Below are positions 28,556 through 50,340 of a stretch of 64,000 nt of DNA, piece after piece. This DNA is from Vulcanimicrobiales bacterium (GTDB lineage: Bacteria; Vulcanimicrobiota; Vulcanimicrobiia; Vulcanimicrobiales; Vulcanimicrobiaceae): positions 1-64,000 of the forward strand of contig JBBQQR010000003.1 of the NCBI GenBank assembly GCA_038215615.1, given 5' to 3'. Position 1 is the first letter of the stretch. Every line of letters begins with the position of its first letter. The notes beneath the pieces were generated by a model, which was given only the letters and a program-made list of their open reading frames with translations, searched no databases and was not told the DNA's origin. A program made the translations under genes and the position numbers.

Positions 28556-28558
28556 CGA

Positions 28559-29185: not shown

Positions 29186-29301
29186 GGCTCGGAGACTTTA
29201 CTATTTTTCTTCTCTCTTCCCGGTCGGCGAAGCACACGGGGTGCCACAGGAACGTGACGCGAAGCCAATCGAAGTACGCTTACTGTTAGGAAGGTAAGAA
29301 A

Positions 29302-29490: not shown

Positions 29491-29503
29491 CGCGCGAAAT
29501 GTC

Positions 29504-29532
29504 AAAGAGCCGCCCGGGTTGGGCGGCTCTTT
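29504..29532. terminator. Bidirectional terminator, probably the pre-integration tRNA-Asn terminator
   Basis: AAAGAGCCGCCC-GGGTT-GGGCGGCTCTTT, 3 nt from the CCA end of the duplicated tRNA half. Confidence 0.8.
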
Positions 29533-29535
29533 AGT

Positions 29536-29582
29536 TGGCTCCGGATGTTGGACTCGAACCAACGACCCGCTGATTAACAGTC
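29536..29582 (-). repeat. att site: exact 47-bp duplicate of the tRNA-Asn 3' end
   Basis: Identical to 36051-36097. Confidence 0.97.
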
Positions 29583-29739
29583 CGTTCCGGCGAGCCCTTA
29601 TGCCTACATAAGAATACGACAAACGACGTTAATTTGTGAGGCTTTTGCAGGTGTCGCGGCTTGTTAAGGCACGAAAGCCGACGGCAAGAAACGGCAAGGC
29701 CTATTGCTGTGGCAGTTGCTGTGTAGCACGGTCAAAATG

Positions 29740-30417
29740 CTAAGGCGAAACCGCGGAGACTAACCTGCCGTGGTCAAAGGTGTAAACCTTTTGCACGGCG
29801 TCCGCTTGACGATAAATCCAGACAAAACGGTGTGCGCCGTCCTGCTTCCAATCGTCAGGCCGCGCGTCAACGTTGTCGCTGCGAAGGCCGCCGCGTGCAG
29901 AAATGACGTTTTGCTCATCCTTTGACAGGACATCCCATACCAGCGGATTGGTCACTTGCTTTACTGCGCGGTATGCGTCATAACTCCAAGGCTTGGACAT
30001 CCCCTCAACCAACTCCGCCTGAAAATATGTGCAAATTACATCGTGAACAACCGCACAAGCTCGGACTCCCGTCACACCCGCTCGGAACATCAGTTTCTGC
30101 CGCCGGTCGAAATCTTCAGGAGACCGCGGTTGCATCGACCTCGCCGCGGATTCCGTTGCCGCCACAAGTCTGAGTGCCGTGTCTGCGCTTTTTTGCGCTT
30201 TAGCTAGGCAAATAATAGCGTCCCACACACCCACATCTCGGCTACAGGCCTGCCAACTAGGCAAACTCGTGACCGAAGCATCGGTAACGTAGTTTTCGGC
30301 GCTATTTGCCCAATCGTCAACATTGTCGGCAAGCGCCGCAACAGTGCATGTGAGCAAGAATGCAACGAAGGCAACGGCGGTTTTTACAGTAGCCGCTCCT
30401 ACTGTGCCCGTACCCAT
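29740..30417 (-). CDS. Exported hypothetical cargo protein
   Basis: Hydrophobic signal ending ALA-D; start uncertain (30417/30441); TGnTAAAGT -10 upstream of 30417. Confidence 0.7.
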   Translation of the reverse strand: MGTGTVGAATVKTAVAFVAFLLTCTVAALADNVDDWANSAENYVTDASVTSLPSWQACSRDVGVWDAIICLAKAQKSADTALRLVAATESAARSMQPRSPEDFDRRQKLMFRAGVTGVRACAVVHDVICTYFQAELVEGMSKPWSYDAYRAVKQVTNPLVWDVLSKDEQNVISARGGLRSDNVDARPDDWKQDGAHRFVWIYRQADAVQKVYTFDHGRLVSAVSP

Positions 30418-30501
30418 GCGCCCGCGAAGACACTTTATCATGACCGCGCCGTTCGACGCCGGAAGCTCACATCCATGTACCATCCAAGCAAAGACACGTC
30501 A

Positions 30502-30696
30502 TCAACCTACAATGGGCCGCCAGGTGCTTCGACGGGCTCCGAAGCCGCCATAGACGCCGCAAGCCTCCTCTCCGCGTATCGTTACGCCCGAGAACCCGCT
30601 GTGCGCGAGAGCGAGCGCAATAACCGCGTCGTCATGTTGTCCTGAAGGCGCGCTGAAGCGTATGTTTCCTGAACCGGATGTCATGAACTCGAAAGC
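30502..30696 (-). pseudogene. C-terminal remnant of terminase large subunit
   Basis: AFEFMTSGSGNIRFSAPSGQHDDAVIALALA matches the HDD.V.ALALA end of TerL nuclease domains. Confidence 0.75.
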
Positions 30697-31193
30697 CGGT
30701 GACGCTTTGCAATCTCAACGACCGACGCGGCGAAGTCTGCGGTGCCGAGTCGCCCCTCGACCTCCGCGACCGCTGCCGGGTTCGTTCGGATCGCGGCCGC
30801 TAAGTTGTAAACGTGCTCGCGTTCGCGGCGCTCGTTCAAAACGTCGGGCGCCTGGCCGTCGATGTTCGTGACCTCGAGGCGTTGCGAGTACGTTTCCGGA
30901 GCCGTCCGTTCGAGAATCCACGTCGCGGCTTTAACGTCGCCCTTCGCTACCGCCGCGAAAATCGTTTCGAGGCATCGACCCCGCATCTTCGACCTTTCGC
31001 CTTGCAACCGCGCCTCGAACTCAGGATCGACCATTCTCCGCGCCTGCATCGTGTCGAACTTGACCCCGCTCGTCCAACAGGCGTCTTTTAGACTCGCTCC
31101 GGTTGCGACGCGCTCGAAGAAAATAGCTGTCTGCTCGTCCGTCCACGGCGTCAGACCCCTCGGCCGCCCGCGACCGCGCTTTTCGTTTGCCAT
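30681..31193 (-). CDS. Terminase small subunit-like protein
   Basis: GRP...G.SL..AC..SGV..T...DPEF...AA.W.LER..P..Y pattern; directly precedes the TerL remnant. Confidence 0.72.
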   Translation of the reverse strand: MANEKRGRGRPRGLTPWTDEQTAIFFERVATGASLKDACWTSGVKFDTMQARRMVDPEFEARLQGERSKMRGRCLETIFAAVAKGDVKAATWILERTAPETYSQRLEVTNIDGQAPDVLNERREREHVYNLAAAIRTNPAAVAEVEGRLGTADFAASVVEIAKRHRLSSS

Positions 31194-31384
31194 GAAGGTA
31201 ACTTCGCGGGGGTTGAGCCGTGCTGCTTTTCGGAGTTTCCGCGCGCGAGGGTCCAAAATAATCACGGCGGGTGTTTTTTGCGAAGTTTTACGCTATTTGC
31301 GTCTTCTCCCTCATTTGGGGTATGGGGGCGGGCGGATCTTCAACGGAACCGGGGTCGCCCGGAGCGATGGGGTCTTTGAGGGGC

Positions 31385-31454
31385 TCCAGCGGGAATGGGT
31401 CGGTTGGGCTGGGATTTTCCAGCGGGAATGGGTCGGTTGGGCTGGGATTTTCCA
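31385..31454. repeat. Perfect 33-bp tandem duplication
   Basis: TCCAGCGGGAATGGGTCGGTTGGGCTGGGATTT x2 plus TCCA. Confidence 0.95.
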
Positions 31455-31892
31455 TATGAAGCAGCGGTTCGACGGGAAATTGGCGTTTTCCACCCTTGCC
31501 CGCCCTGCTCGCAGGAGCATCGCGCTCCATCGATTCTGACACAAACCCCCTTGCGGAAGATGCGGGCGCGCCTTCTGCGCCTTGCAACGGGCCGCCAGAA
31601 AGCATACTACGTTTCGCAAACGGCAGGCGATCAGCGTTCGTGCATTCTGGGCCCTTTTGCTGTAACGGGTTGCTGTGTCCATCGGAATATGGCGCAAAAA
31701 CGCCCGTCGGTATTGAGTTTCTCGTGTGATGACACCCTGTCTATACAACAGCGGCAAGCGGTTTCTGTCGCGAATCACCGAGTTTTTACGTGAGTTTACA
31801 GGCTCACGCGTAAATGCAACCGCGCCGCCAGGTTTCAGCACCAAGAATCCTGATTCAGCACTCACCAAACTGCTCACCTAGAAGCCTCCGTG

Positions 31893-31996
31893 AATGACGC
31901 ATGACGCAGGATGACGCTGATTCCATTAACTCGCCTATAGAGAGAGAGATAGAAGCAACAATAGGAAAGGTGCGTCATGGTGCGTCATGCGTCATT
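31893..31996. other. Putative replication origin with inverted iterons
   Basis: ATGACGC x3 (31894, 31901, 31911) and GCGTCAT x3 (31972, 31982, 31989) around a 54-bp AT/purine-rich spacer at the 3' end of the helicase gene. Confidence 0.8.
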
Positions 31997-33441
31997 GGAT
32001 CCGAGTCGCGGAGGTGGATGCCGTCCTTGAGTCGCGCTTTCGTTGTGCGTCTATCCTCGACGCCGTCTTTTTCGCTGAGCCGAATGGAAAATGGGTTCTT
32101 TGGAAGAGGTTCTCGGTCGCCGTTATCTTTGCAGAAGGCAAGATAAGCCTCGTGAAGTGCGGCTACGGTTTCGGTGTACTGCGGTCCAATCTCGCAACGG
32201 TCGGCGAGGAACCCGGCGACGCTATCTTGCTCGGCGCGGTAGGTTTCCGTCGCGGCGCGGACGGCCGACGCTTTTGGCAGGCCGTTCTCGTACCATGCCT
32301 GCGCGCCGGAGGTCGCCCAGGTGAGGATTCCAGGCAGTTCGGCAATCAGCTTCTTGGTAAGGTCGCCGTCGCGTTCGGCTTCTGGAATAACGACATCGAA
32401 GGGTATCTTTCGGATGCGGCGCCACATAGCGTCGGAGGTGTCGGTGATCTTCGGGTCATGGTTGGTCGCAAGCCAGATTGTGAACTGCGGGACATACGTC
32501 TGGTTCGCGGCGTAGAGATGGCGCGCGGTGACCGGGTCTCCCCCCGTCAATGCTTTCATAAGTGCTGGAGCGAGTTTGCGGTGTTCTTCGGTCTCCGTAA
32601 CCGTCACGAGCCGGGCGCCCTTCATCGCCGCGAGGTCATTCGTCGGCCTCTCGACTCGGTGTTGCATAAACGTCTCGGCGGCCGCGTGTTGCCCGTACGA
32701 ACCGAACAACGCGCTGACGACGTTGAGGAAGGTGGACTTTCCGGTCGCGCCGCGTCCCATCAACATGAACCAGACCTGTTCTTCGGTCGATCCGGTAAGC
32801 GAATATCCGACGGCGAGGCGAAGCAACTCGATAAGCTCGGGGTCACCGCCGCAGACGCGATGAATGAACGCATCCCATGTCGGCGCGACGGCATCTGGGT
32901 CGTAGGCCGTTCCCGCGGATCTCGTGAGGTAGTCGGCCTGTCTAGCCGTTCGAGATTCGCCAGTCCGAAGGTCTACCACGCCGTTTTGAACCCCTAACAC
33001 ATAGGGATCGCTGTCGAACTCCACGTCTTTAGCGGAAAGCTTGAACTGCGCGATATTGAGCATGTTGTCGAGACCCTTGCGGCTGAGCGATTTGTTCGTC
33101 CAAATCGCCAACTTGAGCGCCGAGTCCGTCGGGAGCGTTGCCGCAGCCTGATACAATGCGCGGACGGCCTCTTCAGTTATGCGCCGCGCTTCTTCGTCAC
33201 AGTCTTCACGCCAGATCGTGCCGTCGAAAATGCGCCACCGCTTAAGCGGATGGTCGAAAAGCATTCGATCCCGGGCGTAAGCGACGAGCCAATCGCCGTT
33301 CCCGGCCTCGTTTGGCGACTTAAGAAGCCGGGCGACGGCATCCTGTGGGAATGCGGTCCGCACGACTTCATCTAAGGCGCGCAATGGCGCACTTTCGACG
33401 TTTGCCCCGGCGTGTGATAAACTGGATCTTGGATTCTTCAT
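31975..33441 (-). CDS. P4-family phage/plasmid primase C-terminal region (D5_N + SF3 helicase)
   Basis: W..FDG..W, NGVVDL, GRGATGKST Walker A, K.LTGGD...AR.LY, AMWRR; no recognisable primase catalytic domain. Confidence 0.92.
   Translation of the reverse strand: MKNPRSSLSHAGANVESAPLRALDEVVRTAFPQDAVARLLKSPNEAGNGDWLVAYARDRMLFDHPLKRWRIFDGTIWREDCDEEARRITEEAVRALYQAAATLPTDSALKLAIWTNKSLSRKGLDNMLNIAQFKLSAKDVEFDSDPYVLGVQNGVVDLRTGESRTARQADYLTRSAGTAYDPDAVAPTWDAFIHRVCGGDPELIELLRLAVGYSLTGSTEEQVWFMLMGRGATGKSTFLNVVSALFGSYGQHAAAETFMQHRVERPTNDLAAMKGARLVTVTETEEHRKLAPALMKALTGGDPVTARHLYAANQTYVPQFTIWLATNHDPKITDTSDAMWRRIRKIPFDVVIPEAERDGDLTKKLIAELPGILTWATSGAQAWYENGLPKASAVRAATETYRAEQDSVAGFLADRCEIGPQYTETVAALHEAYLAFCKDNGDREPLPKNPFSIRLSEKDGVEDRRTTKARLKDGIHLRDSDPMTHDAP
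33395..33423 (+). promoter_or_regulatory. Antisense promoter inside the 5' end of the helicase gene
   Basis: TCGACG - 17 bp - TAAACT with TGTGn extended -10. Confidence 0.6.
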
Positions 33442-33477
33442 AGTCCACTCAGGCGGCGTCGTAAGCGCCGCCTTTTT
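33430..33477 (+). ncRNA. Predicted ~48-nt countertranscribed antisense RNA over the helicase start and SD
   Basis: Promoter above plus AGGCGGCG-7nt-CGCCGCCT-TTTT terminator (33451-33477) with its U-tract only on the + strand. Confidence 0.55.
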
Positions 33478-33540
33478 CTATCGGTGACTCCCGTCGTGAG
33501 GCACGGAAGAGTGCGTCAGGAATCGCGGCGGTCTGGGAAT

Positions 33541-33783
33541 CTAGCCTTCAGCTTGTCGGCGCCGCGGGAAGACCCACTCTTCGCGTGGTCCGCGCTGTTC
33601 ACTCTGCGCAATAAAGGCCATCAAGGCGCTCTGACGGATGCGGCGGCGCTTACCGATCATGACGTAGCCCAACTCGCCAGAGTTCATGAATCCGTAAATC
33701 GTCGGCATACTCACGCCGAGTATTGCTGACGCTTCTTTTCCGCTCAGAAGCCTCTCCTCGGGCACAATAGCAAGTTTTGGCAT
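33541..33783 (-). CDS. Excisionase-like helix-turn-helix protein
   Basis: LLS.KEA..ILGVS..TIY....GEL....IG.RRRI...L..FI; AAGGAG SD. Confidence 0.9.
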   Translation of the reverse strand: MPKLAIVPEERLLSGKEASAILGVSMPTIYGFMNSGELGYVMIGKRRRIRQSALMAFIAQSEQRGPREEWVFPRRRQAEG

Positions 33784-33900
33784 ATCTTCTCCTTGGGGGG
33801 TTCGGCCGCAAAAGGCCGAGCCTCGCTTAAATGTTACCAAGTTTTACTGGCGAAAGGAAGATATTGTTCAATTGTGCCGAAAACGACTTTTCAGATAACT

Positions 33901-34821
33901 ATGAAAAAACGACCAGGTAGGCCAACCCGCCCCACCATCGAGGGCGCCCGAGCGGTACACATCCGGCGCCGTCTCATTGCCTTGTTGCTGCACTCGTCGC
34001 TCTCGTTTGAGGATCTCGCAGAACTGCTCGCGCCATTGGAGCAGGTCGCGGATCTTGTAGCACCCCCTAATCGTTCACTCGGCCTATCGCTCGCAAGCAT
34101 CGTGACCGACATACAGTTGCGAAAAGTCCTAGATCCAAAGACGCGCCGTAAGGCCGCCACAGCACCCATAGACGCGGAACGCGGCATTCTGTACGACCTT
34201 ATTTGCGACAAACTAGCGATGGGCGCCGACAACCCCTTACACGTCGCTATTGGTTTGGCACTCAAGGACGTAGACGATGACGAGCCTGCGAATCGCAAGA
34301 GTGCCCTAAAGTTCATCGATCACTATAGCCGGGCCGCGCGCACCGCCGCCTCGACGGACGGGGACAATCCATTTCCAACTACTAACACGCAAAAAAAGCA
34401 ACTAGAAAAATGGGGCGGCATTAGCGAAGTGATGCTGTTCGTTTTGGCACCCGGCTATCTGCGGCGTTCACTAGAGGTCTACGCAAGGCGCCTTAGGCAT
34501 CACGCCCTTCGTGGGTTTGAGAAAGAGTTACGCACTAGTAAGCGCGACATCGTGCTGTCTCTCTCCGAAGCGATGCCGCGCGCACAAACGGGGCGGACGC
34601 AAAAAGTCCATTTGGAACAGGACCTTAGCCGCCTAGACCGGATCGCCGACCGCTTCGAGAAGACGAGCGGAACCCTCGCAAAACTGCGCCGCAAAGGCGA
34701 TCCAAACACGTCGCGCCCCACCTCCGAAGCAGAACTTGAAATCAAACGGTTCATTTTCGGCCGTGACGCGGACGGGCATCCTCACCCAGACCTCTTAACC
34801 TTAAAAAGGGAGACCTCATGA
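33901..34821 (+). CDS. Hypothetical protein coupled to integrase (repressor position)
   Basis: 306-aa ORF, atypical codon use, N-terminal KKRPGRP, ATGA overlap with int, divergent from excisionase. Confidence 0.7.
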   Translation: MKKRPGRPTRPTIEGARAVHIRRRLIALLLHSSLSFEDLAELLAPLEQVADLVAPPNRSLGLSLASIVTDIQLRKVLDPKTRRKAATAPIDAERGILYDLICDKLAMGADNPLHVAIGLALKDVDDDEPANRKSALKFIDHYSRAARTAASTDGDNPFPTTNTQKKQLEKWGGISEVMLFVLAPGYLRRSLEVYARRLRHHALRGFEKELRTSKRDIVLSLSEAMPRAQTGRTQKVHLEQDLSRLDRIADRFEKTSGTLAKLRRKGDPNTSRPTSEAELEIKRFIFGRDADGHPHPDLLTLKRETS

Positions 34822-35954
34822 ATCGCAAACGGCGCGGAAACAACGAAGGCTCGATCTATCAGCGCAAGGACGGCTGGTGGGTTGCGGCGGTATCTGGCGG
34901 CTACGACGAAACGGGCCGTCATCTGCGCCGATCCGTCTACGGTAAGTCGAAGGCGGAAGTCCGCGAAAAACTGCTCGCGCTGCAAAGTCAGGTGAAGTCG
35001 GCGGGACGCGTCAAACGCCCGAGCGTCGAAACTTTGACTTCCTTTTTGACGGCGTGGGTCGATCATGTCGTGAAGCCGAAAGTGCGCGAGACGACCTATC
35101 GCAGCTATGAGATGACCATGCGAGTCCACATCTTCCCGCACGTCGGCAAAGTGCGGCTCGACGAGTTCCGCGTCGCCGATGTCAGGCAGTTGCAGAGAAG
35201 GGTGGCGGCGACCGCTAGTCCGCGCACTCAGCGGCTCGTTCACACAGTTCTGCATAGCGCCTTGAAAGAGGCTGTGCGTGACGAAAGAATATCGCTAAAC
35301 CCCTGCGGCCGAGAACTAGTTGACGCGCCGAGGTACACCCCTCAGCAGATAAGGCCGCTAACGACTGAACAGGCGCAAGCCCTGCTCGATGCTGCGCGCG
35401 GGGACCGTTTAGAGGCCCTGTACGTTCTCGCCCTGACGACTGGAATGCGCTCCGGCGAACTGTTCGCGCTTCATTGGGAGGACGTGGATTTGAACGTCGG
35501 GTCGCTGTCTGTCCGGCGCTCGTTACAAAATATCAATGGAAAAACGCTGCTGGTCGAACCGAAGACCAGGGCTGGTAAACGCCGCATCGACCTTGCGTCT
35601 CTTGCGGTCGCGGCGCTTCGAGAGCATCGCAAGCGCCTTCTTGCTGAGGGCCTGGCGGCGTCCGCTCTCGTCTTTCCAAGCAGTTCGGGGTCGCCGCTTC
35701 AAAGCCGGAACGTTACCAGGCGCAGTTTTGAGCCGCTCCTGGCGAAGGCCGGACTGCCGCGGATCCGTTTCCACGACCTGCGGCACACCTTCGCGACGAC
35801 GATGCTCACCCAGGGCGTCCATCCGAAAGTCGTGCAAGAAATGCTCGGTCACTCAAAGATCGTGGTGACGTTGGATACCTATTCGCATTGCGTCCCGTCG
35901 ATGCAAAAAGAGGCCGCGGCCCGGCTCGATTCCATCTTCTCACGAATGGGCTAG
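34818..35954 (+). CDS. int: Tyrosine recombinase / phage integrase
   Basis: RG..EGSIYQRKDG.W arm-binding N-terminus; TGMRSGE, FHDLRH, LGHS, TYSH catalytic motifs. Confidence 0.97.
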   Translation: MNRKRRGNNEGSIYQRKDGWWVAAVSGGYDETGRHLRRSVYGKSKAEVREKLLALQSQVKSAGRVKRPSVETLTSFLTAWVDHVVKPKVRETTYRSYEMTMRVHIFPHVGKVRLDEFRVADVRQLQRRVAATASPRTQRLVHTVLHSALKEAVRDERISLNPCGRELVDAPRYTPQQIRPLTTEQAQALLDAARGDRLEALYVLALTTGMRSGELFALHWEDVDLNVGSLSVRRSLQNINGKTLLVEPKTRAGKRRIDLASLAVAALREHRKRLLAEGLAASALVFPSSSGSPLQSRNVTRRSFEPLLAKAGLPRIRFHDLRHTFATTMLTQGVHPKVVQEMLGHSKIVVTLDTYSHCVPSMQKEAAARLDSIFSRMG

Positions 35955-36016
35955 TCGGCGACTTGCTGTAGACTATTGCTGTAAACCGCCCGCAACAGGG
36001 CAACTATCAGAAAATA

Positions 36017-42453: not shown

Positions 42454-42524
42454 GGGCTGTGAATCGCTGGGGGGTCCGGTCTCTTAGACATCCGCTCCAG
42501 AGCCCCCCTTTGCTATTCACGCCC
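42454..42524 (-). promoter_or_regulatory. Long imperfect hairpin in the 5' leader of the ymdB operon
   Basis: GGGC/GCCC, GTGAAT/ATTCAC, G6/C6 and TCTGG/CCGGA stacked stems; G-U pair favours the minus strand. Confidence 0.5.
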
Positions 42525-42593
42525 TCTCCAACCAACAGCGAGGGGGGTCCGGTTGCCGGGGGGCCGCCACCGTCCCTCGCGAAGCCCCCAGCC

Positions 42594-43139
42594 GTGAGCA
42601 AACGCCTGCCGCTCTGGCTCGCCGCAGTCGTCCCATCGATGGCGGCCGGCCACGTCGCGGGCTACGCGCTATCGGGACTAAGCTCGGCCGACGGCCGGCA
42701 TGGCTGGCTCTCGCCCGCCCTTGAAGTCTGCGGAGCCGCGCTGATCGGCTTGGGCGCGCTCATCATCGCGAGCACCTTGCTGCGCGCCGGCGTCTTCCGT
42801 CGATCGCAGATCGAAAGCTCGGTGTTGGCGCTGGCGCCGCGGTTGGCGGCATCGCAGCTCGTGCTCTTCGTTGCGGCAGAGACATTCGAAGGGCGCAGCA
42901 TCACGCCGGCCGGCATCGCCACGCAGATCGTATCGGCGCTGCTCGCCGCGTATATGCTTTCGCTATTCAGCAGAATCATCGAACGCTGTATCGCCGGTGC
43001 CGCCGAAGCCGGCAGCTATCTCGACCGTCTTGCCGCGGTCACCGCGGCCTTCTCGCTCATCGAATCCGCGCCGCGATCCCTTGCGCTTTTCGCAAGTGCA
43101 GGCAACAGCCGTTTTCAGCGACCTCCTCCGTTCGCGTAG
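42594..43139 (+). CDS. Membrane leader protein with C-terminal RFQRPPP arrest-like motif
   Basis: About 4 hydrophobic segments, GH..GY and HGW motifs, ends QRPPPFA* 39 nt before the next gene. Confidence 0.8.
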   Translation: MSKRLPLWLAAVVPSMAAGHVAGYALSGLSSADGRHGWLSPALEVCGAALIGLGALIIASTLLRAGVFRRSQIESSVLALAPRLAASQLVLFVAAETFEGRSITPAGIATQIVSALLAAYMLSLFSRIIERCIAGAAEAGSYLDRLAAVTAAFSLIESAPRSLALFASAGNSRFQRPPPFA

Positions 43140-43171
43140 TCATTACGCTCTTGACTACACTCAAACGGAGG
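43125..43171 (+). promoter_or_regulatory. Shine-Dalgarno-sequestering hairpin
   Basis: CCTCCGTT (43125-32) pairs with AACGGAGG (43164-71); GTAGTCA (43136-42) pairs with TGACTAC (43152-58). Confidence 0.8.
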
Positions 43172-43178
43172 TATTCGC

Positions 43179-44948
43179 GTGTTGCAACGCATTTTTGCAG
43201 CCGCAGTTCGCGCGACGTGCGCGACTGTGGCGATCACGGCAGCCCTCGCCGGCCGGGCTGAAGCCGTTCCCGTCTTTGCCAATGGGCAAGGCGTCTCGTG
43301 TCAAACCTGTCACACCACGTTCCCGGGCATGACGCGCTACGGCATGATGGTGATGATGACGAATTTTCAAATTCTCGACCGTCACTCTCAAGACCAAGCG
43401 CTGCCAATCGCAGTGCGTATGTACGTGGATTCGGTGCTCGGCACGGGAGATCAAAAGGGATACACGCAGCTCGGCGATCTCTCGCTGCTGGGCGGCGGTT
43501 TTCTCGGAAGAAACTTCACGTGGTACGGCGAGCAGCACATCGTCGATTCCGGCGTTATCGGCCAAACCGAACAGGTGTGGCTTTCCTGGAACGGCTTGTT
43601 CGGCGGCACCAACTCGCTGCAGGTCGGAAAATTCCACACGCCGTTCCCGTTCATGCCGGCGCACGCGTGGACGCCTTCAGGCTACCTCCTAGCATTACAA
43701 ACCACAGGGCAGAACGATTTCAATGCCGCTGAAGCGCGCTGGGGCGTTGCCTTTTCCGGCATGAGTAACGAATTCATGTACAACGCTTCGTACCTCACCG
43801 GAAGCGGTCCGACGGGCGAAGCGCTCAACTTCAACAAGAACTCGCATCCCCGCGCATACGACTTCAACGTCTCGTATGGCGGTATGCAGATTCCGTGGGA
43901 GCTGGGATTGGTGGCGATGCGCGGCGACGCGCCGGTGGTCGATCCGGACTCCGGCGATTTTCTCTTTAGCGATCAGTGGACGCGCCAGGGAGCCTATCTC
44001 TCGTATCAAGACAGCAAGTGGCACTTTCAAACGATGTACTATCGCGGAAACGACACACAGCCGGACGTCGATACCCTGAACACCACATCGAACGGCTTCT
44101 TCTTCGAAGCGGCCCGCGATTTCGCCAAAGACCACGTGCTGGTGCGGTACGACGTCGCCTCGAGCGATTCGCTCGACCGGCAATACCTGGTGGACGTTTC
44201 ACACAACTTCCAGCCGAATCTCGCGCTGATCGGTGAAGTCCGGATGGTGCCGGCGCAAAAACCGCAGATCATGTTTAGGCTTGCGTATGCCGGACCGTGG
44301 GAAAACGGACGGCGAATTCTTTCCAACGGACACGACGTCTCCACAAACTTCACAGCGCAGCCGCAGTTGCATCCTGCGCAAACGCTCCCGGGTGCCGTGG
44401 CTTCGCCCCTTCCCGCAACGCCGGCCGGCGGCGACGCAAACAATGGGGCGCAACTCGTGCAATCCAACGGCTGCGCGGGCTGTCACGGTGCGGGCCTGAA
44501 GGGCGGGCGAATCGGACCCGTGCTGTTCGGCATCGAACACCACATGTCGAACGATCAGATCGCGGACTTTATCATACATCCGCGCGCGCCGATGCCGAAC
44601 TTCGGTTTCAACACCGCGCAAGTCTCGGACATCGTAGCGTATCTCACGTCACTCGACGGCGGCATCAACAATACTGCGCCTGTCGTCACGTTCTCGCCGG
44701 CGGCGCCGACCGATTTCGCAACGATTAGCGTGACGTTCCCGGGAACTCCGCCGGAAAGCGTCCGGGTTCTTCCGGTCATGCGCATGGGAACCAGCACGCA
44801 CCACACGGCGATGGTCGAATTGCAACCGCTGCCGTCGGATCCGCACACGTTCACCGGCCGCGTCGCATTTTCGATGGGCGGCCCCTGGATCGTACACATC
44901 CAATACGGCCGGCAGGAGTTGGACGTCCCGCTCAACATCGGGACGTAA
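43179..44948 (+). CDS. Cyc2-like cytochrome-porin fused to a second cytochrome c and a YtkA/FixH-like domain
   Basis: Signal peptide, AVPVFA.....CQTCHTTFP.MT.YG, amphipathic beta-strands, Pro/Ala linker, GCAGCH...PMP, then MRMG..HH...FSMGGPW. Confidence 0.82.
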   Translation: MLQRIFAAAVRATCATVAITAALAGRAEAVPVFANGQGVSCQTCHTTFPGMTRYGMMVMMTNFQILDRHSQDQALPIAVRMYVDSVLGTGDQKGYTQLGDLSLLGGGFLGRNFTWYGEQHIVDSGVIGQTEQVWLSWNGLFGGTNSLQVGKFHTPFPFMPAHAWTPSGYLLALQTTGQNDFNAAEARWGVAFSGMSNEFMYNASYLTGSGPTGEALNFNKNSHPRAYDFNVSYGGMQIPWELGLVAMRGDAPVVDPDSGDFLFSDQWTRQGAYLSYQDSKWHFQTMYYRGNDTQPDVDTLNTTSNGFFFEAARDFAKDHVLVRYDVASSDSLDRQYLVDVSHNFQPNLALIGEVRMVPAQKPQIMFRLAYAGPWENGRRILSNGHDVSTNFTAQPQLHPAQTLPGAVASPLPATPAGGDANNGAQLVQSNGCAGCHGAGLKGGRIGPVLFGIEHHMSNDQIADFIIHPRAPMPNFGFNTAQVSDIVAYLTSLDGGINNTAPVVTFSPAAPTDFATISVTFPGTPPESVRVLPVMRMGTSTHHTAMVELQPLPSDPHTFTGRVAFSMGGPWIVHIQYGRQELDVPLNIGT

Positions 44949-46363
44949 TGCGGCGGTCGTCCTTCCTGATGGCGAGCGGCGGCGCGATGATCGTCGCCGC
45001 CTTGCCGCCGCTTTCCGAACGCGGGCGTGCGAGCGAGTTGGTGCAGTACACGCTCACTGCCGGCCCCGTTCGTTTCTCGCCGGTTCCCGGCCTCAATTTT
45101 GCCGGTCTCGGCTATAACGGCACTATTCCCGGTCCGCTTTTGCGCGTGGTTCACGGGCAGAAGCTGCGCGCGAGGTTCATCAACCAAACCGGACAAGGCT
45201 CGACCATTCACTGGCACGGCATGATCTTGCCGAACAAAATGGATGGATCGGAAGGGGTGACGCAGCCCGCCGTTCCGCCGGGCGGATCGTTTCTCTACGA
45301 GTTTTCACCCGAACCGCCCGGCACGCGCTGGTATCACGATCACGTCAGCGATGGTTTGCTGCGCGGACTCTTCGGCATGATTATCGTTGAGGATCCGCGC
45401 GACCAGCGCCCCGATGCGGAATTTGTGCTCGTTTTCCACGACGTTCCGAAAATGGCCACGGTTCAACCAGCGATGATGGGAGTGGGCAACGGCCCGATGA
45501 CCGATCCAACCGGTTCGCCCGAGCTCATGCAAATGTCCGACGACAAGATGGGCGACGAGGTCGCGTTCAGCGCGCATTGCATCAACGGCGCTTCATATCC
45601 GGATACCAAACGGCTGGCCGTAAAAGTCGGCCAGCACGTGCGTCTGCGCATACTCAACGCCAACCCGACGCAAACGCGCTACGTCCGGCTTGCCGGACAC
45701 CGCCTGATCGTCACGCATAGCGACGGCAATCCGCTTCCGCGGCCCGTGGAAGTCGACGCGCTTCGCGTGGGAGTCGCAGAACGGTACGACGCATGGTTCG
45801 AAGTCAGTGAGCCCGGCGCATGGCTGCTGCAAGGCCTTTCGAGCGACCCGCTCGCGTTCGAGCAGGCCGCCGTGATGCATACTCCGGGAATGGAAAACGC
45901 TCCGCCGCTCAGCAGCCCGCAATCGCTCGAAGGCGTGGACTATTTCACGTACGTGAAAGCCGGGGGAGCGGGAACCGCGACGCCGGCGCAGCGCGGGAAA
46001 CAGTACGATTTTATTTTGGACGACGGAAAATACGGCAGTTCGCGCTGGACGATCAACGGAAAGACCTATCCGAATACGCCAAGGATCGACGTGCACCGCA
46101 ACGATCTCGTCACCGTCCGTTTCACCAATAAGACCGATATGGACCATCCGATGCACCTGCACGGCCACGTTTTCGAAGTGACCGAAGTTGACGGGATCCC
46201 GCTCGCGCGGCCCCTGCCGAAAGACACCTCGCTGGTGCGTGGGAACGGAGGGACGCTGAGCTGGCGTTTTCGTGCGGACTCTCCCCCCGGCCGCTGGCTG
46301 CTGCACTGCCACAACGCGATCCACATGATGGACGGCATGATGACGCTGGTGCAGTACGGATGA
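44948..46363 (+). CDS. Tat-exported multicopper oxidase
   Basis: MRRSSFL Tat motif; HWHG, WYHDH, HPMHLHGH, HCHNAIH....M. Confidence 0.95.
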   Translation: MRRSSFLMASGGAMIVAALPPLSERGRASELVQYTLTAGPVRFSPVPGLNFAGLGYNGTIPGPLLRVVHGQKLRARFINQTGQGSTIHWHGMILPNKMDGSEGVTQPAVPPGGSFLYEFSPEPPGTRWYHDHVSDGLLRGLFGMIIVEDPRDQRPDAEFVLVFHDVPKMATVQPAMMGVGNGPMTDPTGSPELMQMSDDKMGDEVAFSAHCINGASYPDTKRLAVKVGQHVRLRILNANPTQTRYVRLAGHRLIVTHSDGNPLPRPVEVDALRVGVAERYDAWFEVSEPGAWLLQGLSSDPLAFEQAAVMHTPGMENAPPLSSPQSLEGVDYFTYVKAGGAGTATPAQRGKQYDFILDDGKYGSSRWTINGKTYPNTPRIDVHRNDLVTVRFTNKTDMDHPMHLHGHVFEVTEVDGIPLARPLPKDTSLVRGNGGTLSWRFRADSPPGRWLLHCHNAIHMMDGMMTLVQYG

Positions 46364-47469
46364 TGATTCTTCAGGCGCTGGAGCTGGCTGCGGGCATGTT
46401 TTGGCAAGTCGCCTGGAGTCTGGTGCTCGGTTTCTTTCTTTCGGCCGCGATTCAAACGCTGGTCTCGAAAGAGCGCATGACCGCGCAGCTCGGCCGCAAC
46501 GGCGTGCGCGAAATCGCGCTCGCAACCGTTTACGGTGCGGCGAGCTCTTCCTGTTCGTACGCCGCCGCGGCGATGAGCAAGTCACTCTTCAAAAAGGGCG
46601 CCGGATTTATTCCCTCGCTCGCGTTTCTCTTCGCATCGACCAATCTCGTCGTCGAGCTCGGCATCATTTTGTACCTGCTGATGGGATGGCAGTTCACTGC
46701 AGCGGAGTGGATCGGGGGCGTTCTGCTGATCGCGATCATGGCGCTGATCGTCAAAGCGACGTATCCCGCGGCGTTGATCGCGGAAGCTCGCCGTCATCTA
46801 GACGAGGCCACCGGCGAGGACGAAACCGTCGCCGGTGAAACATTTTGGGACAAACTGCGTAATCCGCAGACCCCGGTCACGATTGCGCAGACATTCGTGA
46901 TGGACGTTTCCATGCTGTGGAAAGATTTGGCAGCCGGGTTCTTGATCGCCGGCGCACTTGGCATTTTCGTGCCCGCCGGCGTGTGGGGCACATTCTTTCT
47001 GCATGGCGCGCCCGCGGGAGTTCAAATCGTCGCCAACGCGATCGCCGGACCGCTGGTGGCGATCGTTTCGTTCGTCTGCTCGATCGGCAACGTTCCGATG
47101 GCGGCGATCCTATGGGGGAGCGGGATCAGTTTCGGCGGCGTCTTGAGTTTCTTGTTCGCCGATCTGATCGTGTTGCCGCTGCTCGACGTCTACCGGCGCT
47201 ATTATGGCTTGAAGATGGCCGCCTACATCGGCGCCGTCTTTTTCGTGACGATGGTCGCGGCTGGGATCATCATGCAGTACGTCTTCGCAGCGTTCGGGGC
47301 GGTCCCGCATCCCAATCCGCATATCCGCACCGAACTCTCGCTCTTTGCGATCAACTACACGTTTTGGCTGAACCTCGCACTTGGCGCCCTGGCGATCGCG
47401 CTGTGGTACGTGAACGTCAAACATCCGATGTCGCACAGCTGCCCCGCTCACGAGGGCCACGCCCACTAA
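46360..47469 (+). CDS. DUF318/ArsP-type permease with His-rich tail
   Basis: SSSCSYAA, ASTNL, FVCSIGNVP, C-terminal HPMSHSCPAHEGHAH. Confidence 0.88.
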   Translation: MMILQALELAAGMFWQVAWSLVLGFFLSAAIQTLVSKERMTAQLGRNGVREIALATVYGAASSSCSYAAAAMSKSLFKKGAGFIPSLAFLFASTNLVVELGIILYLLMGWQFTAAEWIGGVLLIAIMALIVKATYPAALIAEARRHLDEATGEDETVAGETFWDKLRNPQTPVTIAQTFVMDVSMLWKDLAAGFLIAGALGIFVPAGVWGTFFLHGAPAGVQIVANAIAGPLVAIVSFVCSIGNVPMAAILWGSGISFGGVLSFLFADLIVLPLLDVYRRYYGLKMAAYIGAVFFVTMVAAGIIMQYVFAAFGAVPHPNPHIRTELSLFAINYTFWLNLALGALAIALWYVNVKHPMSHSCPAHEGHAH

Positions 47470-47486: not shown

Positions 47487-48515
47487 ATGCACTTTCTCGG
47501 ACGCGGACGCGTCGTGGTAACTGGCGGAGCCGGATTTATCGGCAGCGCACTGGTCTGGGCGCTCAATCTGCGCGGTGTCGACGACATCCTTATCGTCGAC
47601 AGACTCGACCAATCCGAAAAGTGGAAAAATCTCGTCCCGCTGCGCTACCGGGACTACATGGACGCAAGCGATTTCGAATCCGCGCTCCTTACGCGGCCTG
47701 GCGATTTTCGGGAAGTAAGTACGCTGCTGCATTTAGGCGCTTGCTCGTCGACCACCGAAACGGACACGGCGTTTTTGATGCGCAACAACTACGAGTACAC
47801 CAAGCACCTGGCACAGTGGGCGATCGAACACGACGTCCGTTTCGTGTACGCTTCTTCCGCAGCAACCTACGGCGGACTCGAACGCAACCTGCGCGACGAC
47901 TCCGAACTCGACGCGTTGCGGCCGCTGAACATGTACGCGTATTCGAAGCATCGCTTCGATCTATTCGCACGCGACAACGGCTGGCTCGACAAAATCACGG
48001 GCCTGAAATACTTCAACGTCTTCGGACCGAACGAGCAGCACAAAGGCGAGATGCGCAGCTTGGTCGACAAGGCTTTTCACCAAATCCAAGAGACGGGCAC
48101 CATACGTCTATTCAAAAGTTACCGCAGCGAGTACCGCGACGGCGAACAGCGGCGAGACTTTCTTTACGTCAAGGACGCGGCGGAGATGACCCTGCACGTG
48201 GCCGACCGCGAAGCTTTCGGACTGTTTAACCTCGGTTCGGGGCAAGCGCACACGTGGCTCGATCTGGTGCGCCCGATTTTCCGTTCACTTCGCGTGCCCG
48301 AGCGCATCGAGTTCGTCGACATGCCGGCCCAGCTGCGCGACAAGTACCAATACTGCACGTGCGCCACGATCGACCGGCTGCGTGCCGCCGGCTACGAGGG
48401 GCCCGTGACGGAACTCGATTGCGCCGTTGACGACTACGTTTCCAATTACTTGCTGCCCGGCCGCGGCCTCGACCCGCAGGCCGAATCGTCCGCCGCACTT
48501 AATCGCAGCGCATGA
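47487..48515 (+). CDS. hldD: ADP-L-glycero-D-manno-heptose 6-epimerase
   Basis: TGGAGFIGS, HLGACSSTTE, ASSAATYG, PLNMYAYSK, YFNVFGPNE.HKG.M.S. Confidence 0.95.
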   Translation: MHFLGRGRVVVTGGAGFIGSALVWALNLRGVDDILIVDRLDQSEKWKNLVPLRYRDYMDASDFESALLTRPGDFREVSTLLHLGACSSTTETDTAFLMRNNYEYTKHLAQWAIEHDVRFVYASSAATYGGLERNLRDDSELDALRPLNMYAYSKHRFDLFARDNGWLDKITGLKYFNVFGPNEQHKGEMRSLVDKAFHQIQETGTIRLFKSYRSEYRDGEQRRDFLYVKDAAEMTLHVADREAFGLFNLGSGQAHTWLDLVRPIFRSLRVPERIEFVDMPAQLRDKYQYCTCATIDRLRAAGYEGPVTELDCAVDDYVSNYLLPGRGLDPQAESSAALNRSA

Positions 48516-49270
48516 GTTCTCGCGCAGATCGCCGCCGTCACCAGCGTGGCGGCTCGGGGCCGCCGGCGCGCCGCGATCCCATGGTCCCGGTGTACATTGG
48601 CCTCGCCGTCTTCATCGTTCTGGTATTCGTGGGCTTCGGCATCATGTCGGCCTTGCAAAATTCAAAGCGCAACGCCCAGCAAAGTTTCGTGACAGCAACT
48701 CCGACGCCGGGACCCAACGCAAGTTCCAAGCCGATCAAGCTCAAAGATGGCGGAGCCGTCGGCGCGCGAGTCTTTCCCACGCCCGACCCCGCGCATGGGT
48801 TCATCGGCGACACCATCGTGGGCGGCCGTAGCCTGCCCGTCGACAACATTCCATGCCAAAGTTCAGAGGCAGCCGTCCTGCACGTGCACACGCACCTCGC
48901 TGTCTTCAATCACGGCGTTCAAGTGCAAGTGGCCCCGTATCTGGGCATGGCGTCGCTCTCGCCAACGCAGGGCTGTCTGTATTGGATCCACACGCACGAT
49001 CCGAGCGGCATCATTCACATCGAAGCGGGCAGCATCGTTTCGCCCAACGGCGGAAACTACACGCTCGGAAACTTCTTCGACATCTGGGGCCAGCCGCTGA
49101 GCCGCACACAACTCGGCCCGTTCAAAGGCCCGGTCACGGCTTTCGTCAACGGATCGCAGTACAACGGCGACCTCGCATCGATTCCGCTCCGCGCCCACCA
49201 ACAGATCGTTTTAGAGGCCGGATCGCCGATCGTGCCTCCGCCGAATTACACGTTCCCCTTCGGGGACTAA
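48512..49270 (+). CDS. Membrane-anchored hypothetical protein with clustered His motifs
   Basis: N-terminal TM; HVHTHL, CLYWIHTHD.SG.IHIE, TLG.FFDIWG. Confidence 0.85.
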   Translation: MSSRADRRRHQRGGSGPPARRDPMVPVYIGLAVFIVLVFVGFGIMSALQNSKRNAQQSFVTATPTPGPNASSKPIKLKDGGAVGARVFPTPDPAHGFIGDTIVGGRSLPVDNIPCQSSEAAVLHVHTHLAVFNHGVQVQVAPYLGMASLSPTQGCLYWIHTHDPSGIIHIEAGSIVSPNGGNYTLGNFFDIWGQPLSRTQLGPFKGPVTAFVNGSQYNGDLASIPLRAHQQIVLEAGSPIVPPPNYTFPFGD

Positions 49271-49392: not shown

Positions 49393-50340
49393 GTGAACGT
49401 TTTTGTGGGAATGGTGGTTGGCGCACTCTTAACCATCATTCCGGTGCACGGTACCGTCCTTACGGTTACTTCGACGAACACCGCGATTGTAAGGACCGAA
49501 GCCGTGACCGGGATGCTGCCGTCGACGACACGTGCGTACCGGATCGAACCGCAGCTCGTTCTGAGCGCCGGCGCCGGCATCGACGGGTTCGTCGATAATC
49601 GGCCGCGCCCGTGGCGCCTGTACGATGCCGCATTGGCCGGCCCGTTTGTCGCCGGCCTCCCGCAGACCGGAAAAGTTATCGCATTCGATATCGGCTCGAA
49701 GCTGCCGCACACGCAGCTGGTCGATCAGCGCGGTAAGTTGGTTGACCTGGCGGCGTTCCACGGCGTATCGCTGACCAGTTTTATTTTCACGCGCTGCCGA
49801 GACGAGTGCCCACTCGTCGCGGCAAAATTTGTGGAGATGCAGAAGCAGCTCGATACGAGCCGGTTCCATCTCTTCTTGATCACCATAGATCCCATGTACG
49901 ATTCGCCGTTGGTGCTTGCGCGCTATGCGCGCCAATTCCGCATGAACCCGGCTTCGATCTCCGTGCTGACCGGGCAGCCGCACGATATCGCGACCTTACT
50001 CGACCAATTCGGCATCACGTCGCTCCAAAATGGCGATGCCACCTTCATTCATAGCGACAAAGTGTACTTGGCGTCACCGGACGGACGCGTCGCGCAGATC
50101 TTACAGACGACCGGTTTCACGCCGGGTTCGCTCGCGGCTGCGGCCCGGCATCTGGCAGGCATGGCGAGCAGCCCGTTCGGACGCTTTCAATTGTGGCTGG
50201 TCGCCGGGGTCACTGCTCTCTGCGGCGGAAACCAGTTTGCCGGAATCGTCGCGCTCGAGACCGTCTTGTTTTTGATTATCGCCGGAATCTCGTTCGTGAC
50301 GCTTGGGTGGGTGGTCCGAAGGATATGGGGGAGTACGTAA
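49393..50340 (+). CDS. SCO1/SenC family copper chaperone with extra N-terminal beta domain and C-terminal TM
   Basis: FIFTRCRDECP (CxxxCP), ITIDP.YD, FIHS; GGAGGT SD. Confidence 0.9.
   Translation: MNVFVGMVVGALLTIIPVHGTVLTVTSTNTAIVRTEAVTGMLPSTTRAYRIEPQLVLSAGAGIDGFVDNRPRPWRLYDAALAGPFVAGLPQTGKVIAFDIGSKLPHTQLVDQRGKLVDLAAFHGVSLTSFIFTRCRDECPLVAAKFVEMQKQLDTSRFHLFLITIDPMYDSPLVLARYARQFRMNPASISVLTGQPHDIATLLDQFGITSLQNGDATFIHSDKVYLASPDGRVAQILQTTGFTPGSLAAAARHLAGMASSPFGRFQLWLVAGVTALCGGNQFAGIVALETVLFLIIAGISFVTLGWVVRRIWGST

Follow-up and report, generated by a model that had tools for sequence, protein, structure and literature searches.

We describe a gene cluster at positions 42594-47469 of a 64,000-nucleotide stretch of DNA (the window) from a Vulcanimicrobiales bacterium (contig JBBQQR010000003.1, assembly GCA_038215615.1). 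The cluster combines proteins of two known kinds, a Cyc2-like cytochrome-porin and a multicopper oxidase (MCO), and is a real, conserved system. Comparison among relatives indicates that its conserved core is not the set of four genes seen in the window. Rather, the core is the MCO together with a module, composed of a cytochrome c domain and a YtkA-like domain, that forms the C-terminal part of the cytochrome-porin. We propose that the locus encodes an outer-membrane-anchored metal oxidase whose electron path would never reach the inner membrane, a proposal for which we consider the chances of being right or wrong to be about equal. The membrane location, the direction of electron flow, the substrate and the physiological role are what we infer from the data below.

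The DNA comes from a soil bacterium of the Eremiobacterota that is not in culture. The window lies on contig C3 of a genome of 2.21 Mb with a completeness rating of 100%, and the closest relatives of the cluster genes come from metagenome-assembled genomes (MAGs) named Candidatus Rubrimentiphilum, Baltobacteraceae, or Vulcanimicrobiota/Eremiobacterota. An earlier note, made from the sequence alone, had described four co-oriented genes in this region, the last three of them coupled. All four open reading frames (ORFs) do lie on the plus strand:

42594-43139, plus strand: g1, membrane protein of 181 amino acids (aa) with a GTG start (ORF)
43179-44948, plus strand: g2, fused cytochrome-porin of 589 aa (ORF)
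44948-46363, plus strand: g3, MCO of 471 aa (ORF, Pfam)
46360-47469, plus strand: g4, ArsP_1 permease of 369 aa (ORF, Pfam)

The sequences TAATG at 44946-44950 and ATGA at 46360-46363 mark the overlaps of g2 with g3 and of g3 with g4, respectively, at the positions that the note had stated. Because overlapping stop and start codons are frequent in operons, they are weak evidence when taken alone. Conservation of the g2-g3 adjacency elsewhere is stronger evidence.

The second gene, g2, encodes an unusually composite protein, with the following parts:

43179-43265, plus strand: signal peptide, residues 1-29, ending in AEA (sequence and alignment)
43266-43358, plus strand: Cyc2-type cytochrome head (alignment, published motif, profile match)
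43407-44342, plus strand: beta-barrel with porin fold, residues ~77-388 (AlphaFold2 (AF2)/DSSP, Foldseek, hhalign)
44433-44654, plus strand: class-I cytochrome c domain, residues 419-492 (PF13442, PF00034)
44676-44945, plus strand: C-terminal beta-sandwich, YtkA-like, residues 500-589 (weak PF13115 match, model strands)

Cyc2 is defined by the motif AXPXFAR[Q/K][T/Y], followed by a single CXXCH, then PXL, and a 16-strand porin like OprO/OprP (Keffer et al., PMC8406198). The criteria further call for a signal peptide, only one CXXCH at the N terminus and no fewer than 365 aa (PMC8406198). The N-terminal unit of g2, of ~400 aa, has the signal peptide and the single N-terminal CXXCH, and its cytochrome head is followed by a porin barrel, as judged from the all-beta region of the AF2 model and from Foldseek. 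The head reads AVPVFANGQ-gvs-CQTCH-ttf-PGM, with CQTCH at residues 41-45, and continues into a Met-rich run, GMTRYGMMVMM; M51, M56, M59 and M60 are invariant in the orthologue alignment. Thus, the A, P, F and A of the first motif are retained, whereas R[Q/K][T/Y] is replaced by NGQ in g2 and its orthologues, and PXL is replaced by PGM, in which M51 is invariant.

In the AF2 model of g2, which has a predicted local distance difference test (pLDDT) score of 68.5, residues 77-388 are all-beta, residues 420-491 make up a helical domain, and residues 502-587 form a beta-sandwich. A Foldseek search of the PDB with the beta region returned the porins OmpU, Omp32, OmpF and OprP at E values of 1e-10 to 1e-7. 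No porin family in Pfam, PcoB/CopB included, matches the barrel at E values up to 5, although the g2 and PcoB/CopB barrels may be remotely related in structure. The description of this gene in the earlier note as a cytochrome-porin therefore stands, as CQTCH immediately follows the signal peptide and the middle part folds as a porin barrel; the protein presumably resides in the outer membrane.

Homology also connects g2 with proteins that carry the canonical Cyc2 motif. The protein has 210 homologues, all from Eremiobacterota where the source names them, and their sole annotation is "cytochrome c." A phmmer search with residues 1-407 against 1.84 billion representatives gave 201 matches, most of which are 370-450 aa long and have a signal peptide and the pattern A.P.FA....C..CH...P.LN.[FY]G. 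Phmmer E values between g2 and individual canonical-motif proteins range from 1e-13 to 1e-6, and an hhalign comparison of 32 g2 orthologues with 22 canonical-motif proteins yields a probability of 99.95 and an E value of 1.1e-37 over 360 columns, with a match that spans the heme head and the whole barrel (columns 1-363). This link is based on the published motif definition and on profile homology, not on named iron oxidisers; a locus search with one canonical-motif protein (P0210) returned no relative. By these sequence comparisons, g2 is best regarded as a divergent relative of Cyc2, and because the literal motif fails we call it Cyc2-like rather than Cyc2. Cyc2 is a demonstrated Fe(II) oxidase (PMC8406198; PMC13647500), an activity that should not simply be carried over to g2, because g2 departs from the literal signature.

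The remainder of g2 forms the module. Residues 419-492 match PF13442 (E value 3e-11) and PF00034 (E value 4.5e-8), with CAGCH at 432-436, and M472 in an invariant PMPNFGF loop is presumably the sixth heme ligand. Residues 500-589 match the YtkA family PF13115 with an E value of 0.0022 and 19 bits, which is below the gathering threshold of 25.9; the nearest language-model clusters are likewise YtkA-like, with a score of 0.88 that serves only as a lead. Three Met residues in this domain (M534, M536 and M566) are invariant.

The MCO encoded by g3 has three domains according to Pfam (Cu-oxidase_3, Cu-oxidase and Cu-oxidase_2) and carries the HxH, HxH, HxxHxH and HCHxxxHxxxxM motifs of three-domain enzymes. 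The four copper motifs, Met-rich insert and twin-arginine translocation (Tat) signal listed in the earlier note are all present, the last as the N-terminal MRRSSFL and the insert as a loop at residues 173-204. Among 22 orthologues, the ligands H88, H90, H130, H132, H400, H403, H405, H453, C454, H455, H459 and M464 are invariant, as are M184, D186, E192, M196, M201, D203 and E204 of the Met/Asp/Glu loop. The best NCBIfam matches are copper_res_A (the CopA subfamily) and CueO, both with scores below the cut-offs (181.7 versus 478.95 bits and 123.3 versus 525, respectively). The closest solved chain is 4f7k (E value 6.7e-42), and CueO matches at ~1e-26.

To establish how far these genes occur together, we used an even sample of 401 genomes of the phylum, some of them flagged as unpublished (G177, G329 and others), with orthologue thresholds of E <= 1e-120 for g2 and E <= 1e-100 for the MCO. 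The Cyc2-like N-terminal part matches 298 of the 401 genomes, all in three families of one class and with several paralogues each. By family, such units are found in 262 of 296 (f1), 5 of 5 (f2) and 30 of 30 (f3) genomes, often with two to four per genome, and were not found in the remaining 18 sampled families (0 of 68). Several distant relatives have one or two extra C-terminal CxxCH motifs.

Orthologues proper are more restricted, with g2 found in 50 genomes and the MCO in 119. In 44 of the 50 genomes with g2, the MCO lies on the same contig, 540-1412 nucleotides (nt) past the end of the N-terminal match, a distance that corresponds to the length of the C-terminal module. In four others, the assembly is fragmented and the MCO lies on a different contig, and two (91% and 80% complete) have no MCO. 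At closer range, the MCO is adjacent to g2 in all 19 loci that were fetched, one of which (L013) is truncated where its contig stops. Where the matches extend to both gene ends, 3-18 nt separate the two genes.

The MCO is also found in 71 genomes that have no g2 orthologue. Eight of these loci were fetched. In seven of them, the MCO gene is immediately preceded by a gene for a free-standing protein of 190-270 aa that is homologous to g2 residues ~405-589 (47-67% identity). A database search found 64 such short relatives. We filtered 61 of them (P0312-P0372) for an N-terminal hydrophobic signal of their own that is directly followed by the cytochrome domain; 42 passed, and 19 were dropped because they lack CxxCH, are cut, or contain barrel remnants. 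When 32 fused and 42 free modules were placed in a quick tree, the two forms interleaved, with 11 changes of state, at least three of which are forced by well-supported branches. Some free modules retain a g2-type signal peptide and an "AAPVFA" stub, and these look like g2 from which the heme-porin has been deleted.

Because the split forms adjoin the MCO and interleave with the fused forms, the stable unit is the cytochrome c/YtkA-like module plus the MCO, with the porin having apparently been joined to the module, or cut from it, more than once. A check for conservation of the four-gene unit, which the earlier note had suggested, found it only within this genus. A functional tie between g2 and the MCO, in contrast, is supported by their conserved adjacency, the fusion and fission of the module, and the predicted complex described below.

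In one locus (L014:6001-7744), g2 is apparently split: the N-terminal match covers only residues 1-426 in an open frame of 470 aa, and the YtkA-like end is found in another protein, P0367, of 118 aa. The cause is possibly a frameshift in a long-read assembly.

We predicted the structure of a complex of the mature MCO (residues 30-471) with g2 residues 405-589 and one heme. Three runs gave interface scores (ipSAE, interaction prediction score from aligned errors) of 0.70, 0.73 and 0.70, compared with 0.00 for the best of three controls, with a contact agreement of at least 86% and a partner pLDDT of at least 79. Among the calibration cases, 116 of 157 solved complexes and 2 of 215 mismatched pairs attained the mark, counts that apply only roughly here because our own alignments and a ligand were used. 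On the module side, the predicted interface comprises the CxxCH segment (429-438), the PMPNFGF loop (467-476), and M566, G568 and P569. The MCO contributes its Met-rich loop (183-188), Y217/P218, and residues 293-328. These predictions support, but do not prove, a stable complex of module and MCO in which the heme edge would face the oxidase.

The first gene of the cluster, g1, had been termed a leader. It is instead a conserved, polytopic membrane protein of 181 aa, and a leader peptide was rejected in view of this length, the conservation, and the presence of invariant membrane-embedded residues. No Pfam or NCBIfam family matches it, with only chance-level Pfam matches at E values up to 5. 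Its 25 homologues are all annotated as "hypothetical," and its neighbours in a language-model atlas are unnamed. In an alignment of 24 family members, H20, E96, E99, R176, P178 and P179 are invariant, which includes an E96-x-x-E99 motif and a C-terminal R-P-P-P. The AF2 model (pLDDT 76) has helices at residues 8-27, 39-63, 77-99 and 105-155, and in a structure search the best match, to transmembrane bundles of the FtsX/MacB type, has a Z score of 8.4, within the range that is common for helical bundles.

Copies of g1 upstream of g2 in relatives (type A) share 35-84% identity, compared with 14-20% to distant type-B-like copies and downstream paralogues. A g1 paralogue directly follows the MCO in several relatives, and in nine loci (L002, L003, L007, L012, L015, L018, L019, L025 and L026) a paralogue directly precedes a gene for a TonB-dependent receptor, whose only matches are to generic subfamilies of siderophore/heme receptors, with scores that fall far short of the cut-offs. 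Judging from these gene orders, in most such loci a g1-family gene directly precedes a gene for an apparent outer-membrane barrel. The genome under study has the g1 family in single copy. In L015:5374-7752, which is part of a nanopore-derived chromosome, a g1 homologue and g2 share one stop-free frame, which reflects either a natural fusion of the two genes or an indel introduced in assembly.

The junction between g1 and g2 is predicted to form a stable RNA structure:

43110-43189, plus strand: RNA hairpin covering the end of g1 and the ribosome-binding site of g2 (minimum free energy, shuffles, RNAalifold)

The 5' arm of the hairpin consists of the last g1 codons, CCUCCUCCG, which include the Pro-Pro-Pro codons (CGA CCU CCU CCG, encoding R-P-P-P), and the 3' arm is the ribosome-binding site of g2, CGGAGG. 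The stop codon of g1 lies within the stem-loop. The minimum free energy is -30.5 kcal/mol, compared with -18.8 +/- 2.8 for shuffled sequences (z = -4.19), and one of 200 shuffles equals it. A hairpin at this junction has z <= -2.2 in 11 of 13 related loci. In two loci with type-B-like upstream copies (L005 and L006) and in the receptor-linked L015, the stop-codon region UUUCCUAAAC pairs with GUUUAGGAAA instead, to the same effect; the same pairing is seen in L002, with a weak z of -1.22. RNAalifold, applied to 11 sequences, retains 13 pairs, 5 of them with compensatory changes. Because both arms are under other constraints, one from the proline codons and the other from the Shine-Dalgarno sequence, the informative part of this signal is the covariation in flanking pairs together with the alternative pairing. 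On these structure predictions, translational coupling of g1 and g2 through the hairpin is plausible. The translational control suggested earlier thus has a credible RNA basis, but as a coupling of two protein genes and not as a leader.

The following mechanism would account for these features. In the outer membrane, g2 would be a Cyc2-type porin with one c-type heme at or inside the barrel, and its periplasmic tail would carry a second c-type heme, in the class-I cytochrome c domain, and the small Met-bearing YtkA-like domain. This tail would dock onto the Tat-exported MCO. A reduced metal ion at the cell surface would be oxidised by the porin heme, and the electron would pass from heme to heme, to the type-1 copper, and then to the trinuclear copper cluster, where O2 would be reduced to water in the periplasm. 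The donor could be Fe(II), to which the Cyc2 homology points, or, with nearly the same likelihood, Cu(I), in view of the Met-rich motifs, the YtkA-like domain, the resemblance of the MCO to CopA and CueO, the nearby SCO1 gene, and the exporter-type permease; a small share is left for others, such as Mn(II) or humic compounds.

The YtkA-like domain may hand Cu(I) to the oxidase or help to load its coppers. We regard g1 as a conserved inner-membrane partner to which no role is assigned, and translation of g1 would open the hairpin that otherwise hides the ribosome-binding site of g2. Because no charge would be moved across the inner membrane, and because no RuBisCO was found, the role is suggested to be protective or metal-conditioning rather than lithotrophic. 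The oxidase could keep Fe2+/Cu+ outside the cell or make Fe(III)/Cu(II) for other systems. Regarding the genome as a whole, no RuBisCO large subunit was found despite the 100% completeness rating, which fits a non-lithoautotrophic role. It does contain an Omp85/BamA homologue, a cytochrome c assembly gene and three COX1 genes. The first two of these genes, and the TonB-dependent receptor in relatives, fit the presence of an outer membrane.

A stronger version of the metal-oxidase proposal can be formulated, to which we assign somewhat less than an even chance. The MCO may be the terminal oxidase of a Cyc2-type conduit, such that porin heme, fused cytochrome c and four-copper oxidase make up one outer-membrane-tethered complex that converts reduced metal and O2 to oxidised metal and water, all outside the inner membrane, and with synthesis gated by the hairpin. 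The invariant polyproline codons would then mask the ribosome-binding site of g2 and render output sensitive to ribosome pausing at PPP. If true, the cluster would add a third type to the known bacterial modules for Fe(II)/Cu(I) oxidation, which are Cyc2-to-cytochrome-oxidase chains and free CueO/PcoA enzymes, and this type would be distributed across the phylum.

Several observations weigh against a metal oxidase anchored in this way. The literal Cyc2 signature is altered in g2 (NGQ; PGM). The AF2 model of the protein is only moderate (pLDDT 68.5), with values below 50 for the heme head and parts of the cytochrome domain. The score of the predicted complex is the model's own confidence and not a measurement, and the complex gave no readable heme-to-copper distance. 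Furthermore, in another genus, no module orthologue was found in any of the five MCO-bearing genomes checked, where the only matches were to generic cytochrome c at other positions (E >= 1.7e-9). This genus accounts for 32 of the 119 MCO-bearing genomes. Locus L030 likewise has no module upstream of its MCO. Because the MCO occurs without the module, it must have a substrate of its own. Finally, the Met-rich motifs, YtkA-like domain, SCO1 and ArsP permease fit plain copper homeostasis equally well.

Copper homeostasis, or the maturation of copper enzymes, is accordingly the alternative that survives best, and we consider it possible although rather unlikely. Under this explanation, an MCO of the CueO/CopA type oxidises periplasmic Cu(I) by itself and the module is a copper chaperone, with a Met triad that binds Cu(I) and a heme that adjusts the copper redox state. 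Such a chaperone would serve to load the MCO or to bring Cu(I) to it. The barrel portion of g2 would be a copper channel like PcoB/CopB, g4 would export cytoplasmic copper, and SCO1 would serve oxidases. Porin-MCO pairs of the PcoA/PcoB type are indeed known in copper resistance (PMC5566968), yet g2 is homologous to Cyc2 and matches no Pfam porin family, those of PcoB and CopB included. CopA and CueO are the best named matches of the MCO, although with scores far under the cut-offs. The invariant Met clusters in the g2 head, the YtkA-like domain and the MCO loop (M184, M196 and M201) would suit copper, and M566 and the Met loop of the MCO both fall within the predicted interface. YtkA acts with Sco in CuA assembly (PMC13344008), and SCO1 is syntenic here; the YtkA match, however, is below the Pfam threshold. 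The relationship of g4 to SO_0444 Cu/Zn efflux is offset by its lack of conservation with the g2-MCO pair. The occurrence of the MCO without the module in one genus also favours this alternative. In contrast, copper delivery alone does not readily account for two covalent hemes in line, with a heme edge at the interface predicted for the MCO.

Energy-conserving Fe(II) respiration is improbable. Here, g2 would take electrons from Fe(II) as Cyc2 does, and the MCO would be a soluble carrier of the blue-copper type, comparable to rusticyanin or to the Mco that has been proposed for Metallosphaera, and would pass them to an inner-membrane heme-copper oxidase, possibly by way of g1. The Cyc2 homology of g2 is consistent with this scheme, as are the three COX1 genes, one of which lies beside a Cyc2-like paralogue. 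An MCO has been described as an electron shuttle in Metallosphaera (review, PMC13741234), and cyc2 matches have led to the prediction that Baltobacteraceae oxidise iron (PMC13594681). However, the ligand set of the trinuclear cluster is complete in the MCO, which suggests that the enzyme is built to reduce O2 itself. Moreover, neither an oxidase gene nor a bc-type gene is part of the cluster, g1 shows only a single invariant His and no signature of heme binding, and no RuBisCO was found in a genome rated complete.

A third alternative, modelled on the oxidase-permease pairs cited in the earlier note, is oxidation-coupled uptake, in which the porin would admit the metal, the MCO would oxidise it and g4 would import it. 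The product of g4 matches PF03773 (ArsP_1) over its full length (207 bits, profile positions 3-294 of 294), and the SSSCS and VCSIG motifs and the His/Cys tail (HPMSHSCPAHEGHAH) that were reported for it are present. Its nearest named NCBIfam models are efflux transporters, whose cut-offs it does not reach (SO_0444 Cu/Zn efflux, 57 versus 300; SaoE, 53.9 versus 325). Orthologues of g4 are found in 95 of the 401 genomes and share only 15 genomes with the MCO, where ~28 would be expected by chance (119 x 95 / 401). The two genes are linked only in the eight genomes of this genus, and in the other seven they lie on different contigs or 272 kb apart. In three loci (L002, L003 and L007), a 2.9-kb cassette of a g1 paralogue and a TonB receptor intervenes between the MCO and g4, so the ATGA overlap in the window represents a recent junction. 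We regard g4 as a late, genus-specific passenger and probably a metal exporter.

Uptake of the Fet3/Ftr1 kind is thus the least probable of the explanations, because the points that favour it (the g3/g4 overlap in the window, the Cys motifs and His tail of g4, the hint of uptake from the TonB-dependent receptor in relatives' clusters, and an invariant ExxE, of the motif type used by Ftr1 (PMC2139974), in g1 and not g4) are outweighed by the efflux-type affinities of g4, its separation from the MCO beyond this genus and by the cassette, its less-than-chance co-occurrence with the MCO, and the absence of any FTR1-family permease beside the oxidase, as Pfam assigns g4 only to ArsP_1 and g1 to no family. 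Of the trans-envelope metal pathway proposed earlier, the part that stands is an outer-membrane cytochrome-porin tied to an MCO, and the permease step does not.

Several features flank the cluster:

42492-42593, no strand: divergent intergenic region, candidate promoter/operator (alignment of 7 genus-level loci)
48512-49270, plus strand: His-rich secreted protein of 252 aa, no known family (syntenic neighbour, membership unproven)
49393-50340, plus strand: SCO1/SenC copper chaperone homologue (PF02630, E value 2e-21; syntenic neighbour, membership unproven)

The intergenic region separates g1 from a minus-strand gene for a protein of 203 aa without assigned function, whose start codon is at 42489-42491. 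Across the seven loci, its mean column identity is 85%, with long invariant runs. A scan of its plus strand gave no match to the sigma-70 consensus, and promoter and terminator scans gave matches that are no more numerous than in shuffles. An exact 12-nt direct repeat, GGGGGGTCCGGT, occurs at 42469-42480 and 42542-42553, 73 nt apart. One copy is inside the divergent gene, near its 5' end, and the other lies upstream of g1, within the conserved intergenic stretch. This repeat is a possible operator.

The 252-aa protein has no Pfam match. Its family is characterised by the motifs HVHTH and W.HTHD.SG.IH.E, and its gene follows the cluster after a heptose epimerase gene; extra copies of the family are located upstream of the cytochrome gene in L012:3734-4237, L025:9297-9797 and L026:9419-11046. 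The SCO1 homologue was detected downstream in L001, L004 and L005 (58-91% identity), with a weak, partial match (27%) in L025. The conserved flanks consist of spoVS, ymdB and the 203-aa gene on one side, and of the heptose epimerase, the 252-aa gene and SCO1 on the other. We considered whether the cluster is a mobile island and rejected this idea, as the synteny is conserved across genera.

Most of the remaining genes in the window are housekeeping genes (fatty-acid oxidation, topoisomerase, HslUV, the S-adenosylmethionine cycle and electron-transfer flavoprotein). A small integrase/primase element is present elsewhere, in a region (28000-36000) with a GC content of 0.58, compared with ~0.61 outside:

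31975-33441, minus strand: D5-N/DUF5906 primase-helicase gene
34818-35954: phage-type integrase

Together with the lower GC content, these two genes probably mark a small integrated mobile element.

The same genome carries two further Cyc2-like genes. One (G000:C5:3767-7458; L024) encodes a protein of 376 aa that reads AIPLFAQRY...CSACH. It is part of an apparent operon with the order SCO1-like, plastocyanin-type cupredoxin lipoprotein, Cyc2-like, response regulator and histidine kinase, and this arrangement of Cyc2 plus cupredoxin recalls Cyc2/rusticyanin. The other (G000:C22:23342-27834; L023) encodes a protein of 536 aa with a C-terminal cytochrome c of its own and no YtkA-like domain. It adjoins a gene for a small Met-rich DUF5676 protein and is divergent from COX1, with catalase and a COX2/cupredoxin-like gene nearby. 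The location of both paralogues beside genes for copper redox proteins fits electron transfer from Cyc2-like proteins to copper centres in this organism.

Among marker genes for microbial iron oxidation, Cyc2 is the one in widest use. The phylum occurs in abundance in acidic, iron-rich soils and peat. Earlier work has noted Cyc2-type genes in MAGs of the Eremiobacterota, and members of the phylum have been called iron oxidisers on the basis of Cyc2 matches (PMC8357290, PMC13594681). The word "multicopper" does not occur in the text of PMC13594681. The earlier note's description of the system as undescribed thus does not extend to Cyc2-type genes in this phylum, but it may hold for the fused architecture and the pairing with an MCO, of which we found no description in literature outside subscription journals and supplements. 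It may, with balanced prospects, turn out that at least one group of Cyc2-like orthologues is wired to a periplasmic, O2-reducing copper enzyme and not to the respiratory chain. If so, surveys based on marker genes would credit peat, tundra and mine soils with too much energy-yielding iron oxidation, and the system would be better described as a surface oxidase that detoxifies or conditions metals. The existence of both fused and split forms provides a natural experiment on the electron acceptor of Cyc2, and the polyproline-codon hairpin offers a compact, testable case of translational coupling.

Known systems resemble the cluster to differing degrees. The Fet3/Ftr1 and EfeUOB systems share with it an MCO beside membrane proteins, and the invariant ExxE of g1 may be compared with the RExxE of Ftr1 (PMC2139974). 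However, no FTR1-family protein is present here, g4 is an ArsP_1 protein that is not conserved with the MCO, and g1 has four helices, a single ExxE and no detected homology to Ftr1. CtaK (YtkA) and the YtkA domain of YcnJ from Bacillus subtilis work with Sco in copper delivery (PMC13344008). They are small extracytoplasmic beta-sandwiches, which the last domain of g2 weakly resembles, with a sub-threshold Pfam match, but that domain is fused to a cytochrome c and is predicted to touch an MCO rather than cytochrome oxidase.

Clusters with an MCO and c-type cytochromes also include Nitrosomonas ncgABC. In the mofA-mofB-mofC genes of Leptothrix, MofC has a cytochrome c domain, and SCO1 is part of the Geobacter ompB cluster (PMC5566968). 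When compared by description only, these clusters resemble ours in the combination of MCO and c-type cytochrome, the SCO1-type chaperone nearby, and the proposed metal oxidation. Their cytochromes, in contrast, are not fused to a porin, and they have no YtkA-like domain.

PcoA/PcoB (CopA/CopB) function in copper resistance and have also been hypothesised to function in Fe(II) oxidation (PMC5566968). As in our cluster, a Tat-type periplasmic MCO with a Met-rich region is encoded beside an outer-membrane barrel, and the same ambiguity between Cu and Fe applies. The barrel described here differs in being a heme-bearing Cyc2 relative without a match to any Pfam porin family. In addition, its gene precedes that of the MCO, a fused cytochrome module bridges the two, and g3 scores far below the CopA and CueO cut-offs.

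The closest comparison is with Cyc2 of Acidithiobacillus ferrooxidans, Mariprofundus PV-1 and others. Like these proteins, g2 has a signal peptide, a CxxCH near the mature N terminus and a porin barrel; the profile homology extends over head and barrel, and the spacing A-x-P-x-F-A-(3)-(3)-CxxCH-(3)-P-x-hydrophobic is equal. Unlike them, g2 reads NGQ in place of R[Q/K][T/Y], and PGM with a Met-rich run in place of PXL. It also has ~185 extra C-terminal residues, comprising the cytochrome c and YtkA-like domains, and its partner gene encodes an MCO rather than a cupredoxin, Cyc1 or an oxidase operon.

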